Positions 19,624 through 30,090 of a stretch of DNA of 61,384 bases are shown here, piece after piece. The notes below the pieces were generated by a model. That model searched no databases, had not been told where the DNA came from, and was given only the letters and a program-made list of their open reading frames with translations. Origin of the DNA: Clostridia bacterium (GTDB taxonomy: Bacteria; Bacillota; Clostridia; UMGS1883; UMGS1540). The translations under genes and the position numbers were made by a program. The stretch covers positions 1-61,384 of the forward strand of contig JAZOQG010000011.1 in assembly GCA_045656005.1 (NCBI GenBank). Reading direction: 5' to 3'. Numbering within the stretch: the stretch's first letter is position 1; each line of letters opens with the position of its first letter.

Positions 19624-19652
19624 ATGGGCTGTGATAAAAAATCACAGCCCAT
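19624..19652. terminator. Bidirectional terminator
   Basis: ATGGGCTGTGAT-aaaaa-ATCACAGCCCAT. Confidence 0.75.
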
Positions 19653-20817
19653 TATTATTTTTAGAAATAATCTTATCTCCATATTTGTGCTTAATATCAT
19701 CAATGCAGTTTTCAAGTTTTAAAAGTTTTTCAGTTTCTTCGGTGCTCTGAAAGAGAGAAGTTTGAATATGTGTGTCCGAATGAATCAGGTTTACCGCAGT
19801 AACGGTAACGGCTCTTATATCATTTTCCCATTTATATCTTGCTTCAAAAAGCTCTGCTGCAGCGCGTGCCAAAAGGGTGCTGCTTTGAGTGGGAGAATCG
19901 AGTGTGGTGCGAAATTCTCGTGATGAAAAAAGGCAGTCTTTTATGGTTACCGATACTCCGCACGCTAAAAGTGAGCGCCTTTTAAGTTTTGCTGAAATTT
20001 CTTCTGTAAGAAAATTTATGAGCCTTGTAACTTCCTCAGAGGATTTTAAGTCATGAGGGGTGGTGGCACCGTGCCCAACGCTTTTTACTTCCTCCTGGTT
20101 TTCCACAGAAACCACAGGAGATAAGTCGAGCCCGTTTGCATATTGCCACAAAACTTCTCCGTTTTTTCCGAGCCAGCTTTTAAGACATGTTATATCTGAA
20201 AGCGCAATGTCACCGATTGTGTTGATGTTGTGCTTTTTTAAAATATTGTTCGTAGCCCTTCCAACCCCAAGTAAATCAGATGCAGGGAGAGACCATATTT
20301 TTTTAAAATTATCTTTTGATATAACTGTCACGGCATCAGGTTTTTTCATATCTGATGCCAGTTTTGCAAAAATTTTGTTAAACGAAACTCCCACCGATAC
20401 AGTAAGCCCGGTTTCGCTTTTGACCTTTTTCCTTATTTTGTGTGCAATTTCTTCTCCGCTTCCGAAAAGTGATGTGCTTCCCGTTACATCAAGCCAACAT
20501 TCGTCAATTCCGAAAGGCTCTATCATATCCGTAAAAGAATAATAAATCTTTCTCACAATTTCTGAGTATCTGTAATATGAAGGAAAATCAGGCTCTACTA
20601 TTATAAGCTGGGGACATTTAGCCTTTGCCTGCCATATAACATCTCCTGTTTTTATGCCATATTTTTTAGCATTTTGATTTTTTGCAAGCACTATTCCGTG
20701 GCGGTTTGCACCTGAGCCGCAAACTGCAAGGCAGGAATTTTTAAGCTCAGGATTTTTAACACATTCAACGCTTGCATAAAAATTATTTAAATCGCTGTGA
20801 AGAATAATTCTTTCCAT
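19642..20817 (-). CDS. dinB: Y-family DNA polymerase IV
   Basis: ILHSDLNNFYASVE, GIDECWLD, SVGVSFNKIFAKLASDMKKPD. Confidence 0.93.
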   Translation of the reverse strand: MERIILHSDLNNFYASVECVKNPELKNSCLAVCGSGANRHGIVLAKNQNAKKYGIKTGDVIWQAKAKCPQLIIVEPDFPSYYRYSEIVRKIYYSFTDMIEPFGIDECWLDVTGSTSLFGSGEEIAHKIRKKVKSETGLTVSVGVSFNKIFAKLASDMKKPDAVTVISKDNFKKIWSLPASDLLGVGRATNNILKKHNINTIGDIALSDITCLKSWLGKNGEVLWQYANGLDLSPVVSVENQEEVKSVGHGATTPHDLKSSEEVTRLINFLTEEISAKLKRRSLLACGVSVTIKDCLFSSREFRTTLDSPTQSSTLLARAAAELFEARYKWENDIRAVTVTAVNLIHSDTHIQTSLFQSTEETEKLLKLENCIDDIKHKYGDKIISKNNNGL

Positions 20818-20843
20818 TTTTTTCAGTTTCCTTTAAAAAAGTG

Positions 20844-20930
20844 TTGACAAATTTAAAAAGTTATTGTAATATAAAGGCGAAAGATACTTTCGTCTTTATT
20901 AATTATAATGTAAATGTGTTGCGTTGTCAA
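20844..20930. promoter_or_regulatory. Face-to-face promoters of xre and dinB with a central palindromic operator candidate
   Basis: Plus TTGACA(20844)-17-TAATAT; minus TTGACA(20930)-17-TATAAT; palindrome ATAAAGGCGAAAG-ata-CTTTCGTCTTTAT at 20871-20899. Confidence 0.7.
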
Positions 20931-20958
20931 CAATAATTTTCAAAAGGAGAAATATGTT

Positions 20959-21354
20959 ATGAAATTTTGCGACAAGGTAAAAAATCTTCGTAAGGAGATT
21001 GGAATAAGTCAGGAACTGCTTGCAGAAAAAATCGGTGTTTCAAAGAGGACTGTACAAAATTATGAAACAGCTGATATGTATCCTAAAAGCCGCGAAATAT
21101 ATAAAAAACTGGCAGATACATTTTCTGTTGATGTAAATTATCTTCTTACTGAGGATGAAAAGTTTATTTCTGAGGCAAAAAACCGCTATGGCAGAAGTGG
21201 GGAAATTGATGCGAAGGAGCTTGTGGGAAGTATATCGGCACTTTTCTCGGGCGGTCAGCTTCCCGAGGAAGATAAGGATGCCGTAATGCGGGCAATCAGC
21301 GATGCTTACTGGACTGCGAAAGAAGAAAATAAGAAATACGCTTCAAGAAAATAA
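20959..21354 (+). CDS. XRE-family HTH repressor (ImmR-like)
   Basis: KVKNLRKEIGISQELLAEKIGVSKRTVQNYET; SD AGGAG. Confidence 0.9.
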   Translation: MKFCDKVKNLRKEIGISQELLAEKIGVSKRTVQNYETADMYPKSREIYKKLADTFSVDVNYLLTEDEKFISEAKNRYGRSGEIDAKELVGSISALFSGGQLPEEDKDAVMRAISDAYWTAKEENKKYASRK

Positions 21355-21377
21355 GGGGAGCGGGAAGAAGGTTAAAT

Positions 21378-21887
21378 TTGAATTGCGAAAGAATTAAAAA
21401 AATGGCAGATGCCCTCGTTAAAAAAACAGGGAGCAGAAATCCTTTTGTTATAGCAGATGAAAATTCTATATTTATAAGATATATAAATGATTTTAAAACG
21501 CTTAAAGGTATGTACACGGTGATAAAAAGATGCCGTTTCATATTTATAAATGCAAATTTGCCCGAAGAAGTTCAGAGGGTTGTGTGTGCCCATGAAATAG
21601 GACATGATATGATTCACAGAGAAATGGCACAAATGGGTGCAATTTCAGAAACCTCGCTTTTTGATACAAAAAATTCATTTGAATTTGAGGCAAATGTGTT
21701 TGCTGCAGAACTTTTGATTGATGATAATATGATAGTTTCCATGGCAAAGGAAGGAATGAGTATAGGAAATATTGCATCAAGCCTTTCTCTCGATCCTGGA
21801 ATTGTCGAAATAAAATTTTTGTCTCTTGGAAGGCGCGGACATAAAATAGGAAAAACCCCATTTGGAGTCAAACAGGTTCTATCCTGA
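21378..21887 (+). CDS. ImmA/IrrE family metallopeptidase
   Basis: AHEIGH (HExxH) and EFEANVFAAELL; follows the XRE gene. Confidence 0.9.
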   Translation: MNCERIKKMADALVKKTGSRNPFVIADENSIFIRYINDFKTLKGMYTVIKRCRFIFINANLPEEVQRVVCAHEIGHDMIHREMAQMGAISETSLFDTKNSFEFEANVFAAELLIDDNMIVSMAKEGMSIGNIASSLSLDPGIVEIKFLSLGRRGHKIGKTPFGVKQVLS

Positions 21888-21906
21888 TAATTTTAAGGGA
21901 GAAATT

Positions 21907-22788
21907 ATGAAGAGGAAGAAAAAACAAAAATTTTTATATGTACTTATAGCTGCACTCTTAATGTTTGCATCAACATATATTGCAAATTTTATCGAAGGTT
22001 TTGAAAAAGATAAAATGCAGTTTCCGAAAGATGGAGAACTTTATGTTCACTTTATGGACGTAGGGCAGGCAGACAGCATACTTGTAAATTTCCCAAACGG
22101 GGAAAATATGCTTATTGATGCAGGGAATAATATTGACGGGGAGAGAGTTTCAGCTTATATAAAAGAATATGGTATAGAAAAAATTGATTATCTTGTCGGA
22201 ACACACCCTCATGCTGACCATATTGGCGGAATGGATGATGTTTTAAGAAATTTTGACATAGGCAGAATATATATGCCGAAAGCCACTGCAAATACTGTTA
22301 CATATGAAGATGTCCTTGTCGAAATAAAGAATAAGGGTCTCAAAATAACAGAGGCTAAAGAAGGAGTAGTAATTTCTGACGGAGACGTAAAGTGTGAGAT
22401 TTTGTCACCCTGTCGCAATTTTTATGAGGAACTTAATGACTATTCAGCAGTTGTGCGTTTGACATATGGCGAAACCTCGTTTTTGTTTACAGGAGATGCA
22501 GAAGAAGGTGTTGAAAGAGAGCTTTTAAGAAAATATAATCTTAAATCTGATGTTCTAAAGGTTTCCCACCATGGTTCGAACACTTCTTCCTGCTCTGAAT
22601 TTATAAATAATGTAAAGCCTCAGTTTGCAATAATATCCGTAGGTACAGGAAATGATTACGGACATCCTTCAGAAAAGGTTATAAAAAGACTTCAGAAGGC
22701 AGGGTGCGAAATTTTCAGAACAGATACAGATGGCGATATAATTCTTAGAAGCGACGGCTTGGATGTTTACTATGAAGGGGTGAGATAA
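21907..22788 (+). CDS. ComEC/Rec2-type metallo-beta-lactamase fold protein, N-terminally anchored
   Basis: DVGQADS, LIDAG, HPHADHIGG, FLFTGDAE, KVSHHGS, YGHP. Confidence 0.9.
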   Translation: MKRKKKQKFLYVLIAALLMFASTYIANFIEGFEKDKMQFPKDGELYVHFMDVGQADSILVNFPNGENMLIDAGNNIDGERVSAYIKEYGIEKIDYLVGTHPHADHIGGMDDVLRNFDIGRIYMPKATANTVTYEDVLVEIKNKGLKITEAKEGVVISDGDVKCEILSPCRNFYEELNDYSAVVRLTYGETSFLFTGDAEEGVERELLRKYNLKSDVLKVSHHGSNTSSCSEFINNVKPQFAIISVGTGNDYGHPSEKVIKRLQKAGCEIFRTDTDGDIILRSDGLDVYYEGVR

Positions 22789-22983
22789 ATGAATTTTGTT
22801 ATAGACAGATTTGAAGGAGAATGGGCAATACTTGAAGGAGAAAACAAAGAAATTTATAAATTTTCCGCATCTGCGCTTGAAGATTTTAAAGAAGGCGATG
22901 TTATTGCAATTTTAAAAGATGAGAATGAAATAAACAGAAGGAAAGATAGTATTAAAAGTCTATCTGATGAGCTTTTTGAGTAA
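22789..22983 (+). CDS. DUF3006-like small protein
   Basis: VIDRFEGEWAILE...KEGDVI; usual partner of the ComEC-like gene. Confidence 0.8.
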   Translation: MNFVIDRFEGEWAILEGENKEIYKFSASALEDFKEGDVIAILKDENEINRRKDSIKSLSDELFE

Positions 22984-23051
22984 AATCCCCCCTTTATTAA
23001 ATTTTAATATAAATTTTTTTAAAAAAATTTAATTTATTTCTACTTTGCCAC

Positions 23052-23080
23052 TTGAACTTTTATAAAAATTATGGTAAAAT
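23052..23080 (+). promoter_or_regulatory. sigma-A promoter of carAB, followed by a ~140-nt leader
   Basis: TTGAAC-17 bp-TAAAAT with TG extension. Confidence 0.6.
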
Positions 23081-23224
23081 ATAATGAAATTTGTTAAAAA
23101 ACAAGTTTTAACGTAACAAAGGTGCATTGGCTTTCGGTCTTGTCGGTGCGTTAAACATAGATGGTGGGTTTTTGGCTCATCGCTTGAAAACAGACCGTAA
23201 TATTTCAAAAAGGGGAGAATTGCT

Positions 23225-24292
23225 TTGGAAAAGGCGGCTTATTTAGTCTTGGAAAACGGTAAAATTTTTAAGGGCAAGTTTTTTGGCGTTCCTAAAAATG
23301 TGCTTGGCGAAGTTGTTTTTACTACTTCTATGAATGGTTATATTGAAACTTTGACAGACCCGAATTATTTCGGTCAGATTGTTGTTCAAACATTTCCTTT
23401 GATTGGGAACTATGGTGTTATGGAAAGTGACGTTGAAAGCAGTAGTGTTAAAGTAGCGGCTTATATTGTTAAGAGTTTGTGTGAAGTCCCCTCGAATTTC
23501 AGAAGTGAGGGCGCACTTGACACTTTTTTTAAGGAAAAAAATGTGACGTGCCTTTCGGGAATTGATACTCGTGCACTCACAAAGACCATTCGTGAATGTG
23601 GCAGCTTGAATGGCTTGATAACCGATAATATTGATAATATAGATTTCGGAAAAGTTAAATCCTATAAAATAGAAAATGTAACAGAAAGCCTTTCGACCAA
23701 GGAAATATATTCTGTAGGCGAAGGCAAAAAAAATGTTGTAGTTTATGATTTTGGTGTAAAAAACAGCATTGTAGATGTGTTTAAAAACAGAGGGTATAGA
23801 GTTTACGTAGTACCTTTTGATACACCTGCTAAGGAAGCACTTGAGCTTAATCCTTCGGGAATAGTATTTTCAAATGGTGGCGGAAACCCATGTGATAATA
23901 AAGTTTCTGCTGAAATTGTAAAAGAACTTTTTGAAAGCGGTATCCCGATGCTCGGTATCAGCCTCGGTCATGAGATTATGGCACTTGCAAACGGTTTTGA
24001 ATGTGAAAAACTTAAATATGGTCATCACGGTGCAAATATCCCCGTTAAAGATGCAGAAAGTGACAGAGTTTATATAACAAATCAGAATCACCTTTATGCA
24101 GTTTCTGCAAACAGTATTAAAAGCGATATAGCTGATGTTATTTTCTATAACGTTAACGATAAATCATGCGAAGGTCTTCGCTATAAAAATGCTCCTGCAA
24201 TTTCTGCGGAGTTTTATCCCGACAGTGCCGGTGGGCTTTGCGATACAACCTTTGTATATGACAAATTCTTTGATATGATGGAGGGAAGATAA
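23225..24292 (+). CDS. carA: Carbamoyl-phosphate synthetase small subunit with degenerate glutaminase site
   Basis: GEVVFTT, LTDP, PLIGNYG, QNH present; GISLGHE replaces GICLGHQ and EFYPD replaces QxHPE. Confidence 0.92.
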   Translation: MEKAAYLVLENGKIFKGKFFGVPKNVLGEVVFTTSMNGYIETLTDPNYFGQIVVQTFPLIGNYGVMESDVESSSVKVAAYIVKSLCEVPSNFRSEGALDTFFKEKNVTCLSGIDTRALTKTIRECGSLNGLITDNIDNIDFGKVKSYKIENVTESLSTKEIYSVGEGKKNVVVYDFGVKNSIVDVFKNRGYRVYVVPFDTPAKEALELNPSGIVFSNGGGNPCDNKVSAEIVKELFESGIPMLGISLGHEIMALANGFECEKLKYGHHGANIPVKDAESDRVYITNQNHLYAVSANSIKSDIADVIFYNVNDKSCEGLRYKNAPAISAEFYPDSAGGLCDTTFVYDKFFDMMEGR

Positions 24293-27200
24293 TGCCGCTT
24301 AATAAGAATATTAAAAAAGTTTTGGTTATAGGCTCCGGCCCTATTGTTATAGGTCAGGCGGCTGAATTTGATTTTGCTGGGACACAGGGTTGCCGAGCAA
24401 TAAGAGAAGATGGAATTGAAATCGTACTTCTCAACTCAAACCCTGCAACAATTATGACAGATAAGTCAATGGCTGACAGAATTTATATCGAGCCTATGAC
24501 TCTTACTACCGTTAAAAGAATAATCCAGAAAGAAAAACCCGATAGTATTTTGTCAGGTCTTGGCGGACAGACAGGACTTAATCTTTGTATGCAGCTTGCA
24601 AAAGAAGGTTTTCTTGAGGAAAACGGTGTAACACTTTTGGGTGTTTCTCCCGAAACTATAGATAAAGCTGAGGATAGACAGCTCTTTAAAGACACAATGG
24701 AAAGCATAAATCAGCCCTGTATTCCTTCAAAGGTTGTAACTGATGTTGAAGCTGCCTTGGAATTTGCAGAGGAGATAGGCTATCCCGTAATTGTTCGTCC
24801 TGCATTTACTTTGGGCGGTACAGGTGGCGGTATTGCAGATGATGCGGCACAGCTTTCTGAAATTGCAAGCGTAGGTCTCTCGCTTTCTCCTATTACTCAG
24901 GTACTTATTGAGAAATGTATTTCAGGCTGGAAAGAAATCGAATTTGAAGTAATGCGCGACAGTGCAGGAAACGCTATAACAGTATGCTCAATGGAAAACT
25001 TTGACCCTGTTGGTGTTCATACGGGCGACAGTATAGTTGTAGCACCAGCGGTAACACTTTCACCCAAAGAATATCAGATGCTTCGTACAGCCGCACTTGA
25101 CATAGTTTCGGCACTTGGAGTTGAAGGAGGATGTAACTGTCAGTTTGCACTTCATCCTGAGTCTTTTGAATATGCAGTTATCGAGGTAAACCCCAGAGTT
25201 TCCCGTTCTTCTGCTCTTGCATCAAAGGCAACAGGATATCCTATAGCAAAGGTTGCAACAAAGGTTGCAATAGGCTATCGCCTTGACGAAATTGTAAACT
25301 CCGTTACAGGAACCACTTATGCGGCGTTTGAGCCTGCAATAGATTATATTGCAGTTAAATTCCCGAAATGGCCGTTTGATAAATTTGTTTATGCAAAGAA
25401 AGAACTCGGCACACAGATGAAGGCAACAGGCGAGGTTATGTCTATTGATGATAACTTTGAAGGTGCACTTATGAAGGCAGTTCGTGGCGCAGAAATTGGA
25501 ATTGACACACTCAATTTCAAAGGAATGGATAAGAAAAGTGAAGAAAAACTTTTCAATATGATTAAAAAACCTACAGATTTGCGTCTTTTCGCTGTGTATG
25601 AAGCATTAAAAAGAGGTATTACACCCGAAAAAATCAATGAAATCAGTAAAATTGATAAATGGTTCCTTTATAAACTTTTGAATATTGTAAATTACGAAAA
25701 ACAACTTGGCGGTGAGGTTTCCGAGGAAATGTATTTCGAGGGTAAAAAACTCGGCTTCCTTGATAGTACAATCGGAAAAAGCTATGGTGCAAAACCAAAT
25801 TATAAAATGGTTGATACATGTGCATGTGAATATGCTGCAACAACCCCATATTTCTATGCTGCTTACGATAAGGAAGAAGCAGGCGGAATTAATGAGGCAG
25901 TTGACTTTAAGGATAAAAACGGCAAGAAAACAATTCTTGTACTCGGTTCTGGTCCTATAAGAATCGGTCAGGGAATTGAGTTTGACTACGCATCTGTTCA
26001 CTGTATTGAATCCCTTCAGAGAATGGGCTATGAGGTTGCAATCATCAATAATAATCCCGAAACCGTTTCAACAGATTTTGATACGGCTGACCGTCTTTAC
26101 TTCGAGCCACTTTGCGGTGAAGATGTAATGAACATCATAAACTTTGAAAAACCAGAGGGTGTTGTTGTTGCGTTCGGCGGCGGAACTGCAATTAAACTTA
26201 CAAAGCTTCTCAGTAAAAATAATATTCCGATTTTAGGAACATCTGCTGACAGCATTGATGCGGCAGAGGACAGAGAAAGATTTGAACAGCTTCTCGAAAG
26301 CCTTAATGTAAAAAGACCGAAAGGCTTTTCTGCAATGACTACCGAGGAAGCTCTTGCAATCGCAAATAAAATCGAATACCCCGTTTTAATCCGTCCTTCA
26401 TATGTTTTGGGCGGCCAGAACATGATTATCGCTTATGACGATAATGATATCAAAGAGTACATGGAAATTATCTTGAGACAAAAACAGGAAAATCCGATAC
26501 TCATTGATAAATATATAAACGGATATGAAATAGAAGTTGATGCAATTTGTGACGGAGAGGATATTTTAATTCCCGGTATCATGGAGCATATTGAAAGAAC
26601 AGGTATCCATTCAGGGGACTCCATTGCAGTTTATCCTCCGCAGAATATTGATGACTCTATTGCAAATGACATTTTTGAAACAACAAAGGCTATTTGCCTT
26701 GGACTTGGAGGCATCGGTCTTGTAAATATCCAGTATATCGTAAAAGATGGCGAGATTTATGTAATCGAGGTAAATCCTAGAGCATCAAGAACAGTTCCAT
26801 ATATGAGCAAAATCACAGGTATTCCAATGTGTGATATTGCAATGCTTGTTTCCCTCGGCACAAAGCTTCGTGATACAGAGTATGGTATCGGCCTTTATAA
26901 AACCTCTGCATATACAGCCGTTAAAGTGCCTGTGTTCTCTTTTGAGAAACTTACAGACGTTGATACTCAGCTCGGTCCTGAAATGAAATCAACAGGTGAG
27001 GTTTTGGGTATCGGCAAAAATCTTGAAGAAGCACTTTATAAAGGGCTTCTAGGTGCAGGCTATAAGATGTCAAAAACAGGCGGTGTGTTCTTAACTGTTC
27101 GTGACAGTGATAAAGATGAAATCGGTGATATTGCCGAGAAATTCAGCCAGATGGGATTTTTGCTTTATGCAACTGCAGGAACTGCAAGAGTTCTTGAAAA

Positions 27201-28320
27201 AATGGGACTTCGTGTAAAGGTTGTAAATAAAATTCACGAAAGTGAAGATAATTCAATGACACTTCTTGATAGCGGAAGTATCAAATATATTGTTTCAACC
27301 TCCAAAAAGGGAAGAGACCCGGTTCGTGACAGTGTTAAGATAAGAAGAAAAGCAAGCCTTCTCGGAATACCATGCCTTACTTCTATTGATACTGCAAATG
27401 CTCTTGCAAATACTCTTATGAGTAAATACAGTGAAATTAACACAGAGCTTGTTGATATAACTCACCTTCGTGCAGAAAAAATAAATCTTAAATTTACAAA
27501 GATGCAGGGCTGCGGAAACGATTATATTTATATTGATTGCTTTAAGCAGACAGTAAATTCACCTGAAAATCTCTCAGTATTTCTCACAGACCGTCACTTC
27601 GGAATAGGCGGTGACGGAGTTGTGCTTATCTGCCCTTCGGAAGTTGCAGATGCAAAAATGAGAGTGTTCAATGTTGACGGAAGCGAAGGAGAAATGGCAG
27701 GAACTTCCATAAGATGTGTCGCAAAATATCTTTATGATAATAAAATGGTGAATAAAGATACAGTAACGGTTGAAACTAAAAGCGGGGTTAAAACCTTAAA
27801 GCTTAAAACCGTTGGCGGACTTGTTTCAAGCGCACAGGTCAATATGGGACTTCCAACATTCAGCCCCAAATCTATTCCGATGAATGTTGAAGGGGAAACA
27901 GTTATAAATAAAAAAATTGAAGTTTGCGGAAAAGAATATGAAGTAACCGCACTTTCCTTTGGAAATCCTCATGCAGTAGTGTTTATGGATAACTCTGAAA
28001 AAATTGAAGTTTCAAAAATCGGACCGCAGTTTGAAAACTGCCCCATTTTCCCTGAAAAGGTTAATGCGGAATTTGTTCAGGTTCTCGATAATAAGACACT
28101 TCGCGTATCCGTATGGGAGAGAGGAAACGGGGAGACACTCGCCTGCGGAACAGGAGCATGCGCAGCAGTAGTTGCGGCAGTAATGTGCGGACATTGCGAG
28201 AAAAACAGCGATATTAAGGTTATGCTTTTGGGCGGAGAACTTACAATCCGCTACACAGACGAGGGAGTGTTTATGACAGGACCTTGCGAAAAAGTATTTG
28301 AAGGTATTGTAACAATCTAA
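24292..28320 (+). CDS. carB: Carbamoyl-phosphate synthetase large subunit fused to a C-terminal DapF-fold domain
   Basis: GSGPIVIGQAAEFD, two ATP-grasp units, MGS domain, then in frame LKFTKMQGCGNDY...GIGGDG...GNPH...WERGNGETLACGTG from ~27481. Confidence 0.93.
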   Translation: MPLNKNIKKVLVIGSGPIVIGQAAEFDFAGTQGCRAIREDGIEIVLLNSNPATIMTDKSMADRIYIEPMTLTTVKRIIQKEKPDSILSGLGGQTGLNLCMQLAKEGFLEENGVTLLGVSPETIDKAEDRQLFKDTMESINQPCIPSKVVTDVEAALEFAEEIGYPVIVRPAFTLGGTGGGIADDAAQLSEIASVGLSLSPITQVLIEKCISGWKEIEFEVMRDSAGNAITVCSMENFDPVGVHTGDSIVVAPAVTLSPKEYQMLRTAALDIVSALGVEGGCNCQFALHPESFEYAVIEVNPRVSRSSALASKATGYPIAKVATKVAIGYRLDEIVNSVTGTTYAAFEPAIDYIAVKFPKWPFDKFVYAKKELGTQMKATGEVMSIDDNFEGALMKAVRGAEIGIDTLNFKGMDKKSEEKLFNMIKKPTDLRLFAVYEALKRGITPEKINEISKIDKWFLYKLLNIVNYEKQLGGEVSEEMYFEGKKLGFLDSTIGKSYGAKPNYKMVDTCACEYAATTPYFYAAYDKEEAGGINEAVDFKDKNGKKTILVLGSGPIRIGQGIEFDYASVHCIESLQRMGYEVAIINNNPETVSTDFDTADRLYFEPLCGEDVMNIINFEKPEGVVVAFGGGTAIKLTKLLSKNNIPILGTSADSIDAAEDRERFEQLLESLNVKRPKGFSAMTTEEALAIANKIEYPVLIRPSYVLGGQNMIIAYDDNDIKEYMEIILRQKQENPILIDKYINGYEIEVDAICDGEDILIPGIMEHIERTGIHSGDSIAVYPPQNIDDSIANDIFETTKAICLGLGGIGLVNIQYIVKDGEIYVIEVNPRASRTVPYMSKITGIPMCDIAMLVSLGTKLRDTEYGIGLYKTSAYTAVKVPVFSFEKLTDVDTQLGPEMKSTGEVLGIGKNLEEALYKGLLGAGYKMSKTGGVFLTVRDSDKDEIGDIAEKFSQMGFLLYATAGTARVLEKMGLRVKVVNKIHESEDNSMTLLDSGSIKYIVSTSKKGRDPVRDSVKIRRKASLLGIPCLTSIDTANALANTLMSKYSEINTELVDITHLRAEKINLKFTKMQGCGNDYIYIDCFKQTVNSPENLSVFLTDRHFGIGGDGVVLICPSEVADAKMRVFNVDGSEGEMAGTSIRCVAKYLYDNKMVNKDTVTVETKSGVKTLKLKTVGGLVSSAQVNMGLPTFSPKSIPMNVEGETVINKKIEVCGKEYEVTALSFGNPHAVVFMDNSEKIEVSKIGPQFENCPIFPEKVNAEFVQVLDNKTLRVSVWERGNGETLACGTGACAAVVAAVMCGHCEKNSDIKVMLLGGELTIRYTDEGVFMTGPCEKVFEGIVTI

Positions 28321-28327
28321 AACAATC

Positions 28328-28561
28328 AGGGGATGTTAAAAATTCCCAGAGCACAAAAAGGCAATAGTTTTTATTGGCATTGTAAATTTAAAAAACATTA
28401 AAGTAACTACATTTTGTAGGGAAATCTCATAGCATGAGATTTCCCTGAATTTTTAAGCCTTTTTGCTACGAACAAACTTCACCTCTCGCTGTATAACATA
28501 CAGCTTCGGGTAACCCCTGCGGGTTCAGTTTGTCCGTTCTGAAACTTTTTTCCTATCCCCT
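28328..28561 (+). mobile_element. MITE-like dispersed structured repeat, copy 2
   Basis: Homologous to 2201-2419; TIRs AGGGGATnnnAAAAA; same AGGGAAATCTCA/TGAGATTTCCCT hairpin. Confidence 0.7.
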
Positions 28562-28579
28562 CTGTAATGGAGGTTTATT

Positions 28580-29320
28580 ATGTTGCGCAATTATAAAGAA
28601 GAAACCGAAAAAAGAGTAAAATTTATAAAAGACACACTTGAAAGTGCTCACGCAAAAGGAATTGTTTTCGGCAACAGCGGTGGAAAAGACTGTGCACTCG
28701 TGGGAATACTTTGCAAAATGGCATGCGAGGATACGGTGGGAGTAATTATGCCCTGCTCTTCAAGACGAAACTATGAAGAGGACATGCGTGACGGTATGGA
28801 GGTTGCAGAAAAATTCGGCATCGAAACAAGAGTTGTTGATATAACGGATGTGAAGGAAAAATTCCGAAGGATACTTGAAGGTAAGACCATGCTTTCTAAG
28901 ATGGCAGACACAAATATAAATCCACGTCTTCGTATGACTGTGCTTTATGCCATAGGTGCATCGGAAGGTAAACTTGTAGCAGGAACAGGTAACAGAAGTG
29001 AGCGATATATGGGCTACTTTACAAAGTGGGGTGACGGAGCTTGTGATTTAAATCCCATTTCCGACCTTACAGTTAAGGAGGTTTATGAATTTTTAGAATA
29101 CCTTGGAGCACCCGAGGCTATTATGACAAAAGCCCCTTCTGCCGCGCTTTTTGAAGGACAGAGTGACGAAGAGGATATGGGAATAAAATATGCCGATATT
29201 GATAAATTTTTGCTTACAGGCGAAATATCCGATGAAAATCGTGAGATTATAGAAAGATATAATAAAGGAAGCCGTCACAAGGTCAGAATGCCTGCGGTGT
29301 ATAGAGAAATTAATGAATAA
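28580..29320 (+). CDS. nadE: NH3-dependent NAD+ synthetase (no glutaminase domain)
   Basis: SGGKDC, NINPRLRM, GTGNRSE, GYFTKWGDG, PSAAL...DEEDMG; 246 aa. Confidence 0.92.
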   Translation: MLRNYKEETEKRVKFIKDTLESAHAKGIVFGNSGGKDCALVGILCKMACEDTVGVIMPCSSRRNYEEDMRDGMEVAEKFGIETRVVDITDVKEKFRRILEGKTMLSKMADTNINPRLRMTVLYAIGASEGKLVAGTGNRSERYMGYFTKWGDGACDLNPISDLTVKEVYEFLEYLGAPEAIMTKAPSAALFEGQSDEEDMGIKYADIDKFLLTGEISDENREIIERYNKGSRHKVRMPAVYREINE

Positions 29321-29342
29321 TTTTTAATTTGAAGCGGACACG

Positions 29343-29393
29343 CACAAAATACCCCCCCTCTCATATAATTAATTATATTGATTTATGGGAGGG
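29343..29393 (+). promoter_or_regulatory. sigma-E/K-type promoter of sigK inside an SD-occluding hairpin
   Basis: CACA-15 bp-CATATAAT; stem CCCTCTCATA/TATGGGAGGG. Confidence 0.55.
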
Positions 29394-29400
29394 CATTTTT

Positions 29401-30090
29401 ATGCTTATGGAGCTTATCTGCTTCTTGTTTAAAAATATTTTTATGGTGTCATTTGTAAGCGGAGGAAACTCATTTCCAAGGCAGCTTTCACAGGAAGAGG
29501 AAGAAGAGCTTTTAAAAAGGTATCAGGAAGGTGACATTGATGCCAAGAATATTTTAATTGAACATAATCTCCGCCTTGTAGCACACGTTGTAAAAAAATA
29601 TCAGGGAAGCGGAATTGAGAGCGACGATTTGATTTCCATAGGAACAATAGGACTTATAAAAGCAATATCTACATATAACTTAGATAAAAAAATAAGAATA
29701 GCAACTTATGCCGCAAGATGTATTGAAAATGAAGTTTTAATGGTTTTAAGGTCAAATCGCAAATTGCAAAACGAAGTATCGCTAAATGACCCTATTGGAT
29801 TTGATAAGGAAGGGAACGAAGTAAATCTCCTCGATATTTTAAGATGTGAGGACGATGACGTAATAGAAAAGATTGAAACAAGAAACACCGTGTCAAAACT
29901 TTATGACGGAATAAAAAAATGCCTTAAAGAGAGAGAGGCGCAGATACTTAAAAAAAGATATGGACTTTGCGGATATAAAGAAAAAACACAGCGTGAAATT
30001 GCGGAAGAAATGGGTATTTCCCGTTCTTATGTCAGTCGTATAGAAAAAAGGGCACTTTTAAAACTTAAATCTTGCTTTGAAAATAAATAA
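29401..30090 (+). CDS. sigK: Sporulation sigma factor pro-sigma-K, uninterrupted
   Basis: Hydrophobic pro-sequence then NSFPRQLS, LIEHNLRLVAHVVKKY, DDLISIGTIGLIKA, TYAARCIENEVLM, SRSYVSRIEK. Confidence 0.9.
   Translation: MLMELICFLFKNIFMVSFVSGGNSFPRQLSQEEEEELLKRYQEGDIDAKNILIEHNLRLVAHVVKKYQGSGIESDDLISIGTIGLIKAISTYNLDKKIRIATYAARCIENEVLMVLRSNRKLQNEVSLNDPIGFDKEGNEVNLLDILRCEDDDVIEKIETRNTVSKLYDGIKKCLKEREAQILKKRYGLCGYKEKTQREIAEEMGISRSYVSRIEKRALLKLKSCFENK

Follow-up and report, generated by a model that had tools for sequence, protein, structure and literature searches.

In human carbamoyl-phosphate synthase 1 (CPS1) a Ser stands in place of the catalytic Cys, which makes glutamine unusable for the enzyme, and it takes ammonia from solution instead (PMC4655335). 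Among bacterial carbamoyl-phosphate synthases (CPSs), the large subunit CarB of Escherichia coli works alone with ammonia and the CarB2 protein of Bacteroides thetaiotaomicron has been proposed to be NH4+-dependent; all eubacterial CPSs characterised until 2021 were glutamine-dependent, the orphan CarB2 being put forward as the first exception (PMC8121099). In B. thetaiotaomicron the carAB and dapLF genes lie together and are induced when ammonium is low, CarB2 and the meso-diaminopimelate dehydrogenase Ddh taking their place at plentiful ammonium (PMC8121099). The present analysis concerns a locus at positions 23052-29320 of a 61,384-nucleotide stretch of contig JAZOQG010000011.1 (assembly GCA_045656005.1) from a Clostridia bacterium, the whole of which is hereafter referred to as the window. 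The locus comprises the CPS small subunit gene carA, a carB gene fused to a diaminopimelate epimerase (DapF) domain and the NAD synthetase gene nadE. Of this genome, the analysis covered the window.

The locus would be best described as an ordinary carA-carB operon of spore-forming, Oscillospirales-like Clostridia carrying two independent lineage-specific modifications. It probably encodes a bacterial CPS that depends on ammonia, as vertebrate CPS I does, together with a fused DapF that has kept one of its two catalytic cysteines (hereafter DapF*), the two modifications being separate. As the nucleophile, the general base and several glutamine-binding residues of the small subunit are gone, the holoenzyme would have to use free NH3 in the manner of vertebrate CPS I and the E. 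coli C269S CPS, and the dead CarA would most likely be retained to support CarB structurally or to form part of the path by which ammonia enters. DapF would have been fused head-to-tail to CarB in a common ancestor, the one-cysteine variant appearing later in the window lineage. The initial annotation of this DNA had regarded a dead glutaminase subunit, an extra altered domain on CarB and a downstream NadE devoid of a glutaminase domain as one new system. The three features themselves were recovered: the triad and the glutamine-binding residues of CarA are gone, DapF is fused gap-free to CarB with Ala1136 in place of Cys73, and NadE contains PF02540 only. A glutamine-independent CPS, also proposed there, would most likely follow from the death of the glutaminase. 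Their unity as one system did not stand, since the fusion is lineage-wide, the losses recur separately and nadE accompanies the fusion in 2 of 80 loci.

The small subunit (carA*, 23225-24292, plus strand, 355 amino acids, assigned by domains and alignment) has the two-domain architecture of its family, CPSase_sm_chain followed by GATase (PF00988 163 bits, PF00117 119 bits), and matches TIGR01368 with 380 bits (cut-off 307). On alignment to E. coli CarA, the Cys-His-Glu triad (C269/H353/E355) reads Ser246/Tyr331/Asp333, Cys269 being replaced by Ser246 (codon AGC, 23960-23962), His353 by Tyr331 (codon at 24215-24217) and Glu355 by Asp333 (codon at 24221-24223). Changes are also present at S47, Q273 and G313/F314, which we take from the E. 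coli structures to be glutamine-binding residues: Ser47 is Asn47, Gln273 is Glu250 and Gly313-Phe314 is Leu-Tyr, so that NHGF reads NHLY. The best match of this CarA in the PDB is the small subunit of the E. coli C269S mutant (1c30), which is coincidental. The same CarA and DapF residues are found in an independent metagenome contig (L081) with 91.5% nucleotide identity over 7.5 kb. Among the nine closest CarA relatives (66-92% identity) His353 is absent in all, and Cys269 is Ser, Gly or still Cys. The agreement with L081 and across the clade indicates that the changes are fixed clade traits and not errors, and the uniform absence of His353 against a variable Cys269 implies that the histidine was lost first there. 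Sequencing error as the source of the substitutions was considered and is ruled out by L081, by the clade-wide agreement and by the two base changes needed for the Cys to Ala replacement in DapF*.

The distribution of the dead glutaminase was followed in a species scan of one genome per species, from which the best 80 loci, all spanning the CarB-DapF junction, were kept. The triad is absent in 14 of the 66 adjacent CarAs, with at least nine state changes on a CarB neighbour-joining tree. The ratio of GATase identity to CarB-core identity is 0.56-0.77 in all 14 triad-less CarAs against 0.84-0.97 in the intact ones (Mann-Whitney p=1e-8), and residues that do not vary elsewhere, Ser47 for example, drift as well in the triad-less proteins. 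The ratio of nonsynonymous to synonymous substitution rates (dN/dS) between the window and L081 is 0.11 for the GATase domain, 0.09 for the CarA N-domain, 0.019 for the CarB core and 0.012 for DapF*. The dead GATase domain evolves faster than its intact relatives, yet it is constrained and not neutral. The most extreme glutaminase-less form seen, in which an assembly error is possible, belongs to an Oscillospiraceae metagenome-assembled genome (RGIG2118; L070, 6695-11230), where one frame of 1512 codons, directly following argJ-argB-argD-argF, consists of a CarA N-domain without GATase, CarB and a one-Cys DapF. Two other loci, L068 (argCJBD-carB::dapF) and L034 (asd-dapA-dapB-carB::dapF), have no adjacent carA and fit the orphan CarB2 type of organisation, to which the window, with a carA that is present and coupled, does not belong.

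Triad-dead CarA homologues (Gly/Ser/Asp) with no carB beside them were also observed as orphans in two further loci, L086 (9001-11419) and L088 (357-2726). Behind each lies a conserved ~355-residue protein that has no Pfam match and carries an ArsR-like helix-turn-helix motif near its C-terminus, and a cluster of DegT aminotransferase, PylC-like ATP-grasp and PALP genes is located nearby. These dead CarAs may have been recruited to another role.

The window enzyme resembles vertebrate CPS I in that an inactive glutaminase-like domain is retained, Cys has become Ser and ammonia is the presumed substrate; the PDB chains 5dot and 6uel match the window CarA at E=2e-53. CPS I differs in being a single polypeptide that needs N-acetylglutamate and retains both His and Glu from the triad, whereas the window has separate subunits, has lost His and Glu as well and bears an appended DapF, as an independent bacterial loss. 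As read from the sequence, the parallel with the CPS I class consists only of the Cys to Ser change. With E. coli CarAB the window shares the two subunits, the translational coupling of the genes and a full-length CarB match, and the C269S mutant (1c30) mimics Ser246; unlike E. coli, it is also without His353, Glu355, Ser47 and Gln273 and has ~280 extra C-terminal residues, the DapF. The B. thetaiotaomicron 'high-affinity ammonium' locus (CarB2/carAB-dapLF; Liu et al. 2021) is similar in its proposed ammonium CPS, its gut organism and its CPS-dapF-dapL linkage. It differs in that CarB2 has no small subunit whereas the window keeps a dead one, and in that dapF is a separate gene there and fused here; the window locus has also lost dapL.

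Two CPSs are frequent in Bacilli-type Firmicutes, and it is possible, though doubtful, that the operon encodes a high-ammonium isozyme while a second, intact glutamine-dependent carAB elsewhere serves growth at low ammonium, an arrangement that is compatible with the ammonia-dependent reading favoured here and would refine it. The division of labour between CarAB and CarB2 proposed for Bacteroides (PMC8121099) is in its favour, whereas no CPS paralogue is present in the window or within 10 kb in the 80 loci. When the window was searched for paralogues of carA, carB, dapF and nadE, each gene matched only itself.

The fused gene carB::dapF (24292-28320, plus strand, 1342 amino acids, from the gene call and family profiles) begins with an ATG that overlaps the carA stop codon (TAATG), the two genes being translationally coupled. 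Its CarB part (24292-27483) matches the equivalog NF003671 with 1445 bits over residues 1-1045 (cut-off 599) and TIGR01369 with 1416 bits, and holds the two ATP-grasp halves, the oligomerisation domain and the MGS-like allosteric domain. The DapF* domain (27484-28320), delimited with TIGR00652 and by alignment to solved DapFs, scores 272 bits against this equivalog over residues 1067-1340 (cut-off 115) and matches the Bacillus anthracis DapF structure (PDB 2otn) at E=7e-77. The C-terminal tail of CarB passes gap-free into the first DapF strand.

The CarB::DapF fusion is present in 80 of the best 80 loci kept, and a protein search with the allosteric-domain-plus-DapF segment returned MGS and DapF on one protein in all 120 matches listed. 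According to record titles, the carriers include Oscillospiraceae, Ruminococcus, Acutalibacter, Neglectibacter, Christensenellaceae and several Treponema, from gut, rumen and termite samples. The junction (TELVDINxMR..L.FTKMxGxGNDY) is highly conserved and gap-free across the loci, which points to a single fusion origin. The fusion is a lineage-wide trait that was already present in the ancestor of a large clade whose CarAs are mostly intact. Five Treponema loci (L031, L057, L069, L078 and L079) have the identical type of fusion with the same junction and nest among Clostridia on the CarB tree, suggesting that the fused gene was transferred horizontally as a whole; four of them form a clade with Ala at position 73 of DapF, and L031, with Gly73, branches elsewhere among Clostridia. 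A literature search for a CarB-DapF fusion found no description, and the database labels of the fusion proteins read "carbamoyl-phosphate synthase large subunit" or "diaminopimelate epimerase, partial".

Alignment of DapF* to the solved DapFs (E. coli numbering) places Ala1136 at Cys73 (GCA, 27697-27699), Thr1138 at Asn75, Ser at Gly76 and Asn1279 at Ala211. Of the catalytic pair Cys73 and Cys217 the latter alone remains, as Cys1285. The residues of the diaminopimelate (DAP)-binding set (N11, N64, N75, N157, N190, E208, R209 and T/S219) appear to be all kept except N75. The domain has the two-domain DapF fold in an AlphaFold model, with a predicted local distance difference test score (pLDDT) of ~90 within the domain. 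When the allosteric domain and DapF* were modelled together, both were predicted with confidence and their mutual orientation was not (predicted template modelling score, pTM, 0.65; linker pLDDT ~55). DapF* is similar to canonical DapF (B. anthracis 2otn, Haemophilus influenzae 1bwz/2gke, Corynebacterium glutamicum 5h2g) in fold, family and Cys217 and apparently in its other pocket residues, and is unlike it in having Ala at 73, Thr at 75 and Asn at the Ala211 position and in being fused to CarB.

Cys73 is lost in 29 of the 73 full-length fusions (Ala 19, Gly 9, Ser 1), and its state changes at least 12 times on the CarB neighbour-joining tree. In these 29 domains Cys217, N190, E208, R209, G218 and T219 are invariant, and N64, N75 and N157 are kept in 28. 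Coupling to Cys73 is strongest at the Ala211 position, where Asn is found in 24 of 29 Cys73-lost against 1 of 44 Cys73-kept domains (p=2e-13). The replacement of Ser by Asn at this position alongside the loss of Cys73 is convergent, the pairing being seen in a deep Ala clade, in a Treponema clade, in the window lineage and in several single species. The Cys to Ala change, which costs two base changes, arose at least three times. The closest DapF relative in the window lineage (80% identity) has Ser73, suggesting a path from Cys through Ser to Ala after the death of the glutaminase. The variant was also sought among the 150 best DapF representatives from a library of 1.8 billion proteins, ~125 of which are of stand-alone length. 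Cys73 is kept in all of the latter except P0252, whose start lies inside a CarB tail, and every Ala73 or Gly73 variant among the 150 is a fragment of a fusion.

These data bear on three readings of the domain. That DapF* is a decaying, functionless remnant which survives in frame with an essential CarB is very unlikely. Cys73 is gone, the equivalent mutant of C. glutamicum DapF is nearly inactive and dapL is no longer adjacent, all of which would fit decay. Full decay of a fused domain does occur in one locus, L015, where a stand-alone dapF lies beside the fusion: this domain shows C73S, GNPS, E208K and C217G, with many active-site positions decayed and the frame intact. Against decay in the window stand the dN/dS of 0.012, as low as that of the CarB core, the invariance of Cys217 and the pocket residues over at least ten independent Cys73-lost lineages, the convergence of Ser to Asn and the repeated two-base change to Ala. 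Cys73-lost domains also show no excess divergence, their DapF divergence relative to CarB being equal to that of the Cys73-kept domains (0.806 vs 0.818, p=0.94). DapF* is not decaying and is under purifying selection as strong as that on CarB.

DapF* might still be a diaminopimelate epimerase, within a bifunctional CPS/DapF, if water or another group placed by the new Asn served as the second proton donor. The conservation of the pocket, of Cys217 and of the domain closure elements would agree with this, as would the absence of a second dapF from the window and the replacements at position 73, which are always small (Ala, Gly, Ser) and coupled to Asn, so that a water could find room. In C. glutamicum, however, the C83A and N85A mutants (equivalent to C73A and N75A) are nearly inactive (PMC5296763), and the window has Thr at the N85 equivalent. 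The variant is also unseen among the ~124 stand-alone-length DapF representatives, which would not be expected of a competent epimerase. Moreover, the Cys73-lost form is almost never beside dapL, the gene for the LL-DAP aminotransferase, which is adjacent in 21 of 50 Cys73-kept against 1 of 30 Cys73-lost loci (p=9e-5). The single exception is L015, where the fully degenerate fused domain has a canonical stand-alone dapF next door. Continued epimerase activity is therefore considered unlikely. Canonical two-Cys dapF genes stand alone 0-5 kb downstream of the fusion in L015 and in three further Neglectibacter/Acutalibacter loci (L002, L010 and L020), and the deep Ala73 clade is located in argCJBDF-carA-carB::dapF* operons.

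Taken together, the selection on the domain, the invariance of its residues, the separation from dapL, the stand-alone comparison and the mutant data argue that the canonical role has been lost and that another role needing the pocket and Cys217 remains; DapF* would hardly be a canonical epimerase any longer, and its other constrained role would be specific to the fusion. DapF closes around its ligand, and in E. coli it is known to have a second function as a protein-binding activator of RppH (PMC6061791). The preferred reading is that DapF* would be a ligand-binding regulatory or structural module on the CPS allosteric domain, the main alternative being that it would retain a one-base catalytic activity. 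As a sensor, it would have DAP, or else an amino acid resembling ornithine, citrulline or arginine, as its ligand and would regulate CPS by way of the adjoining allosteric domain.

The relation between the two losses was examined in the 66 of the 80 species loci that have an adjacent CarA and a readable DapF, to which the window, with both lost, is additional. Triad and Cys73 are both intact in 34 loci; an intact triad with Cys73 lost is found in 18, a lost triad with Cys73 kept in 6, and loss of both in 8 (odds ratio 2.5, Fisher p=0.14, phylogeny uncorrected). The triad losses are spread about evenly over the Cys73-kept and Cys73-lost backgrounds. In L035, a sister of the window on the CarB tree, CarA is dead (Gly/Asn/Asp) while DapF is canonical with both Cys, and the same combination is present in L087, a relative obtained by the CarA protein search. 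The DapF change is neither required for the glutaminase loss nor tightly linked to it; the two losses arose separately, and the three features do not make up one new system. The cross-genome check put forward in the initial annotation, that triad loss, the fusion and the Cys to Ala change should co-occur, thus did not bear out such a pattern, the fusion being mostly accompanied by an intact CarA and a canonical DapF.

The same loci weigh on the further suggestion made there, that the DapF-like domain replaces the glutaminase by freeing NH3 from another donor (DAP, Ser, Asn etc.) and channelling it to CarB. Some one-Cys relatives could lend it substance, as one-Cys members of related cofactor-free racemase-fold families are eliminases or dehydratases; DapF* keeps the DAP pocket and Cys217, and both changes coincide in the window, with the mildly positive odds ratio given above. 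The proposal is nonetheless extremely unlikely. An intact CarA adjoins 18 of the 26 Cys73-lost fusions, and a dead CarA goes with a canonical DapF in L087 and six species loci, including the Cys73-keeping sister L035 on the CarB tree. In the structural model, DapF* would be attached by its low-confidence linker to the C-terminal allosteric domain, which E. coli CPS structures place at a long distance from the NH3-receiving carboxyphosphate site, and DapF has no cofactor for the deamination of DAP. Adaptation to an ammonia-rich habitat, the other alternative in the initial annotation, is the better fit of the two. The theme common to the locus, ammonia in place of glutamine or glutamate as the donor, would then come from life in an ammonia-rich gut or rumen, with no physical or mechanistic coupling behind it.

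The third feature, nadE (28580-29320, plus strand, 246 amino acids), encodes a single-domain NAD synthetase of the ammonia type (TIGR00552 232 bits) with the NAD_synthase domain PF02540 and with no fused or adjacent nitrilase-like glutaminase. Single-domain NadE proteins are common and normally use ammonia (PMC3376133). The gene starts 260 nt past carB::dapF, and its neighbours are sigK, which follows it, a His_Phos_1 phosphatase and uxaC. An intrinsic terminator (28417-28447, plus strand), which has a stem of 14 bp and then a T run and is also present in the intergenic fold, closes the carA-carB::dapF transcription unit. Within 10 kb of the fusion, nadE was found in 2 of the 80 species loci, in one of them with intact CarA and DapF, and the order carB::dapF-nadE(-sigK) is confined to the close relatives L081 and L085. 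As a component of the system nadE is excluded by this synteny and by the terminator before it; it is a separately transcribed neighbour whose adjacency is local synteny, and the initial caution that it might be coincidental was correct.

A structured leader upstream of nadE (28470-28545, plus strand), outside the CPS unit, adopts a three-way junction as its minimum free energy fold, and the carB-nadE intergenic fold has z = -5.0 for the entire region, terminator included. It is present in L081 with a few changed stem positions and absent in L085, and might act in cis as an RNA regulator of NAD synthesis that has so far gone undescribed.

When neighbour genes were clustered across the 80 species loci, dapL was found immediately downstream in 21 (carA-carB::dapF-dapL) and pyrG, for CTP synthase, near the fusion in ~17. 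Upstream, 11 loci have an ANTAR response regulator; a type III glutamine synthetase gene is present in 10 and purF in 7. The ANTAR regulator, of ~197 amino acids, lies upstream of carA in L004, L009, L021, L022, L024, L025, L028, L030, L036, L040 and L051, frequently accompanied by a glutamine synthetase of type III or type I and preceding carA-carB::dapF-dapL/pyrG, which suggests nitrogen-regulated antitermination of the locus. The ancestral fusion locus was a nitrogen-assimilation cluster, carA-carB::dapF-dapL(-pyrG), similar to the carAB and dapLF locus of Bacteroides, and the fusion most plausibly began as an adjacency of carB and dapF in a nitrogen-assimilation operon.

Several points weigh against the explanation of the locus favoured here. 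The co-occurrence of triad and Cys73 loss is mildly positive, and there may be a weak link between them, most likely by way of a shared habitat. The dependence on NH3 is deduced from the residues only, the ammonia-rich habitat is derived solely from the record titles of relatives, and AlphaFold gives no confident placement of DapF* against the allosteric domain for a sensor role. The genome may also have, elsewhere, a further intact carA or carAB, a dapF2, a ddh or a stand-alone dapF, any of which would change how the physiology is read. A search for Ddh in the window and the loci with a C. glutamicum Ddh query gave no match, a result that is uninformative.

Upstream of carA, a consensus scan placed a likely promoter (TTGAAC, 17 nt, TG-TAAAAT) at 23052-23080 on the plus strand, its function being inferred; the hexamers are kept in the relatives L081, L083 and L084. 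The carA start codon is TTG, with a good ribosome-binding site upstream. The leader of ~150 nt contains, in an alignment of four related leaders, two conserved blocks around a variable hairpin (23129-23205, plus strand): block 1, GGCTTTCGGTCTTGTCG (23129-23145), and block 2, AAACAGACCGTAATATTT (23188-23205). The blocks contain CGGTCT and AGACCG, which are able to pair and are kept in the four related carA leaders. The fold of the leader is not better than that of shuffled sequences (z = -1.4). The blocks may be a regulator binding site or an attenuator. An Rfam search of 22500-29500 at E<=1 gave zero matches, the carA and nadE leaders included, and hence no known riboswitch or leader lies upstream of either gene.

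The window is otherwise a typical chromosome stretch of spore-forming Clostridia, with groEL, clpC/mcsB, gerA operon genes and sigK and ~38% G+C. No arginine, pyrimidine, DAP or nitrogen-assimilation genes were found in it beyond the studied locus. A block at 19642-22788 consists of dinB (DNA polymerase IV) on the minus strand, after which the plus strand encodes an HTH_3 repressor, an M78 peptidase of the IrrE/ImmA type and a ComEC-like metallo-beta-lactamase (MBL)-fold hydrolase. It is joined by a small DUF3006 gene in relatives and is syntenic upstream of carA in L083 and L089; its repressor/antirepressor pair has the look of a remnant from a stress response or a mobile element.

As far as searches show, neither a glutaminase-dead bacterial CPS of this kind nor the one-Cys variant of CarB::DapF has been described previously. 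A dead-but-kept, truncated or absent CarA recurs in about a fifth of the fusion species, which offers natural, testable bacterial counterparts of the step from vertebrate CPS III to CPS I and points to gut ammonium availability as the selective force. The one-Cys DapF* is a clean example in which strong selection has continued although a catalytic residue was lost, and is well suited to the study of how enzyme domains turn into pseudoenzymes or regulators. Genomes with such loci will be credited by automated pathway tools with a functional glutamine-dependent CPS and a functional DapF, and either may be wrong. It is conceivable, with the balance somewhat against it, that the one-Cys DapF* (Ala or Gly73 with Asn211, the pocket and Cys217 being kept) is a new functional module found only on CPS, a sensor or a one-base enzyme, which arose convergently many times in gut Clostridia and Treponema and which, with the CarA losses, marks an unrecognised class of ammonia-dependent CPS. 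If so, the DapF* module and the repeated loss of CarA would represent a bacterial ammonia-dependent CPS class with its own regulation.

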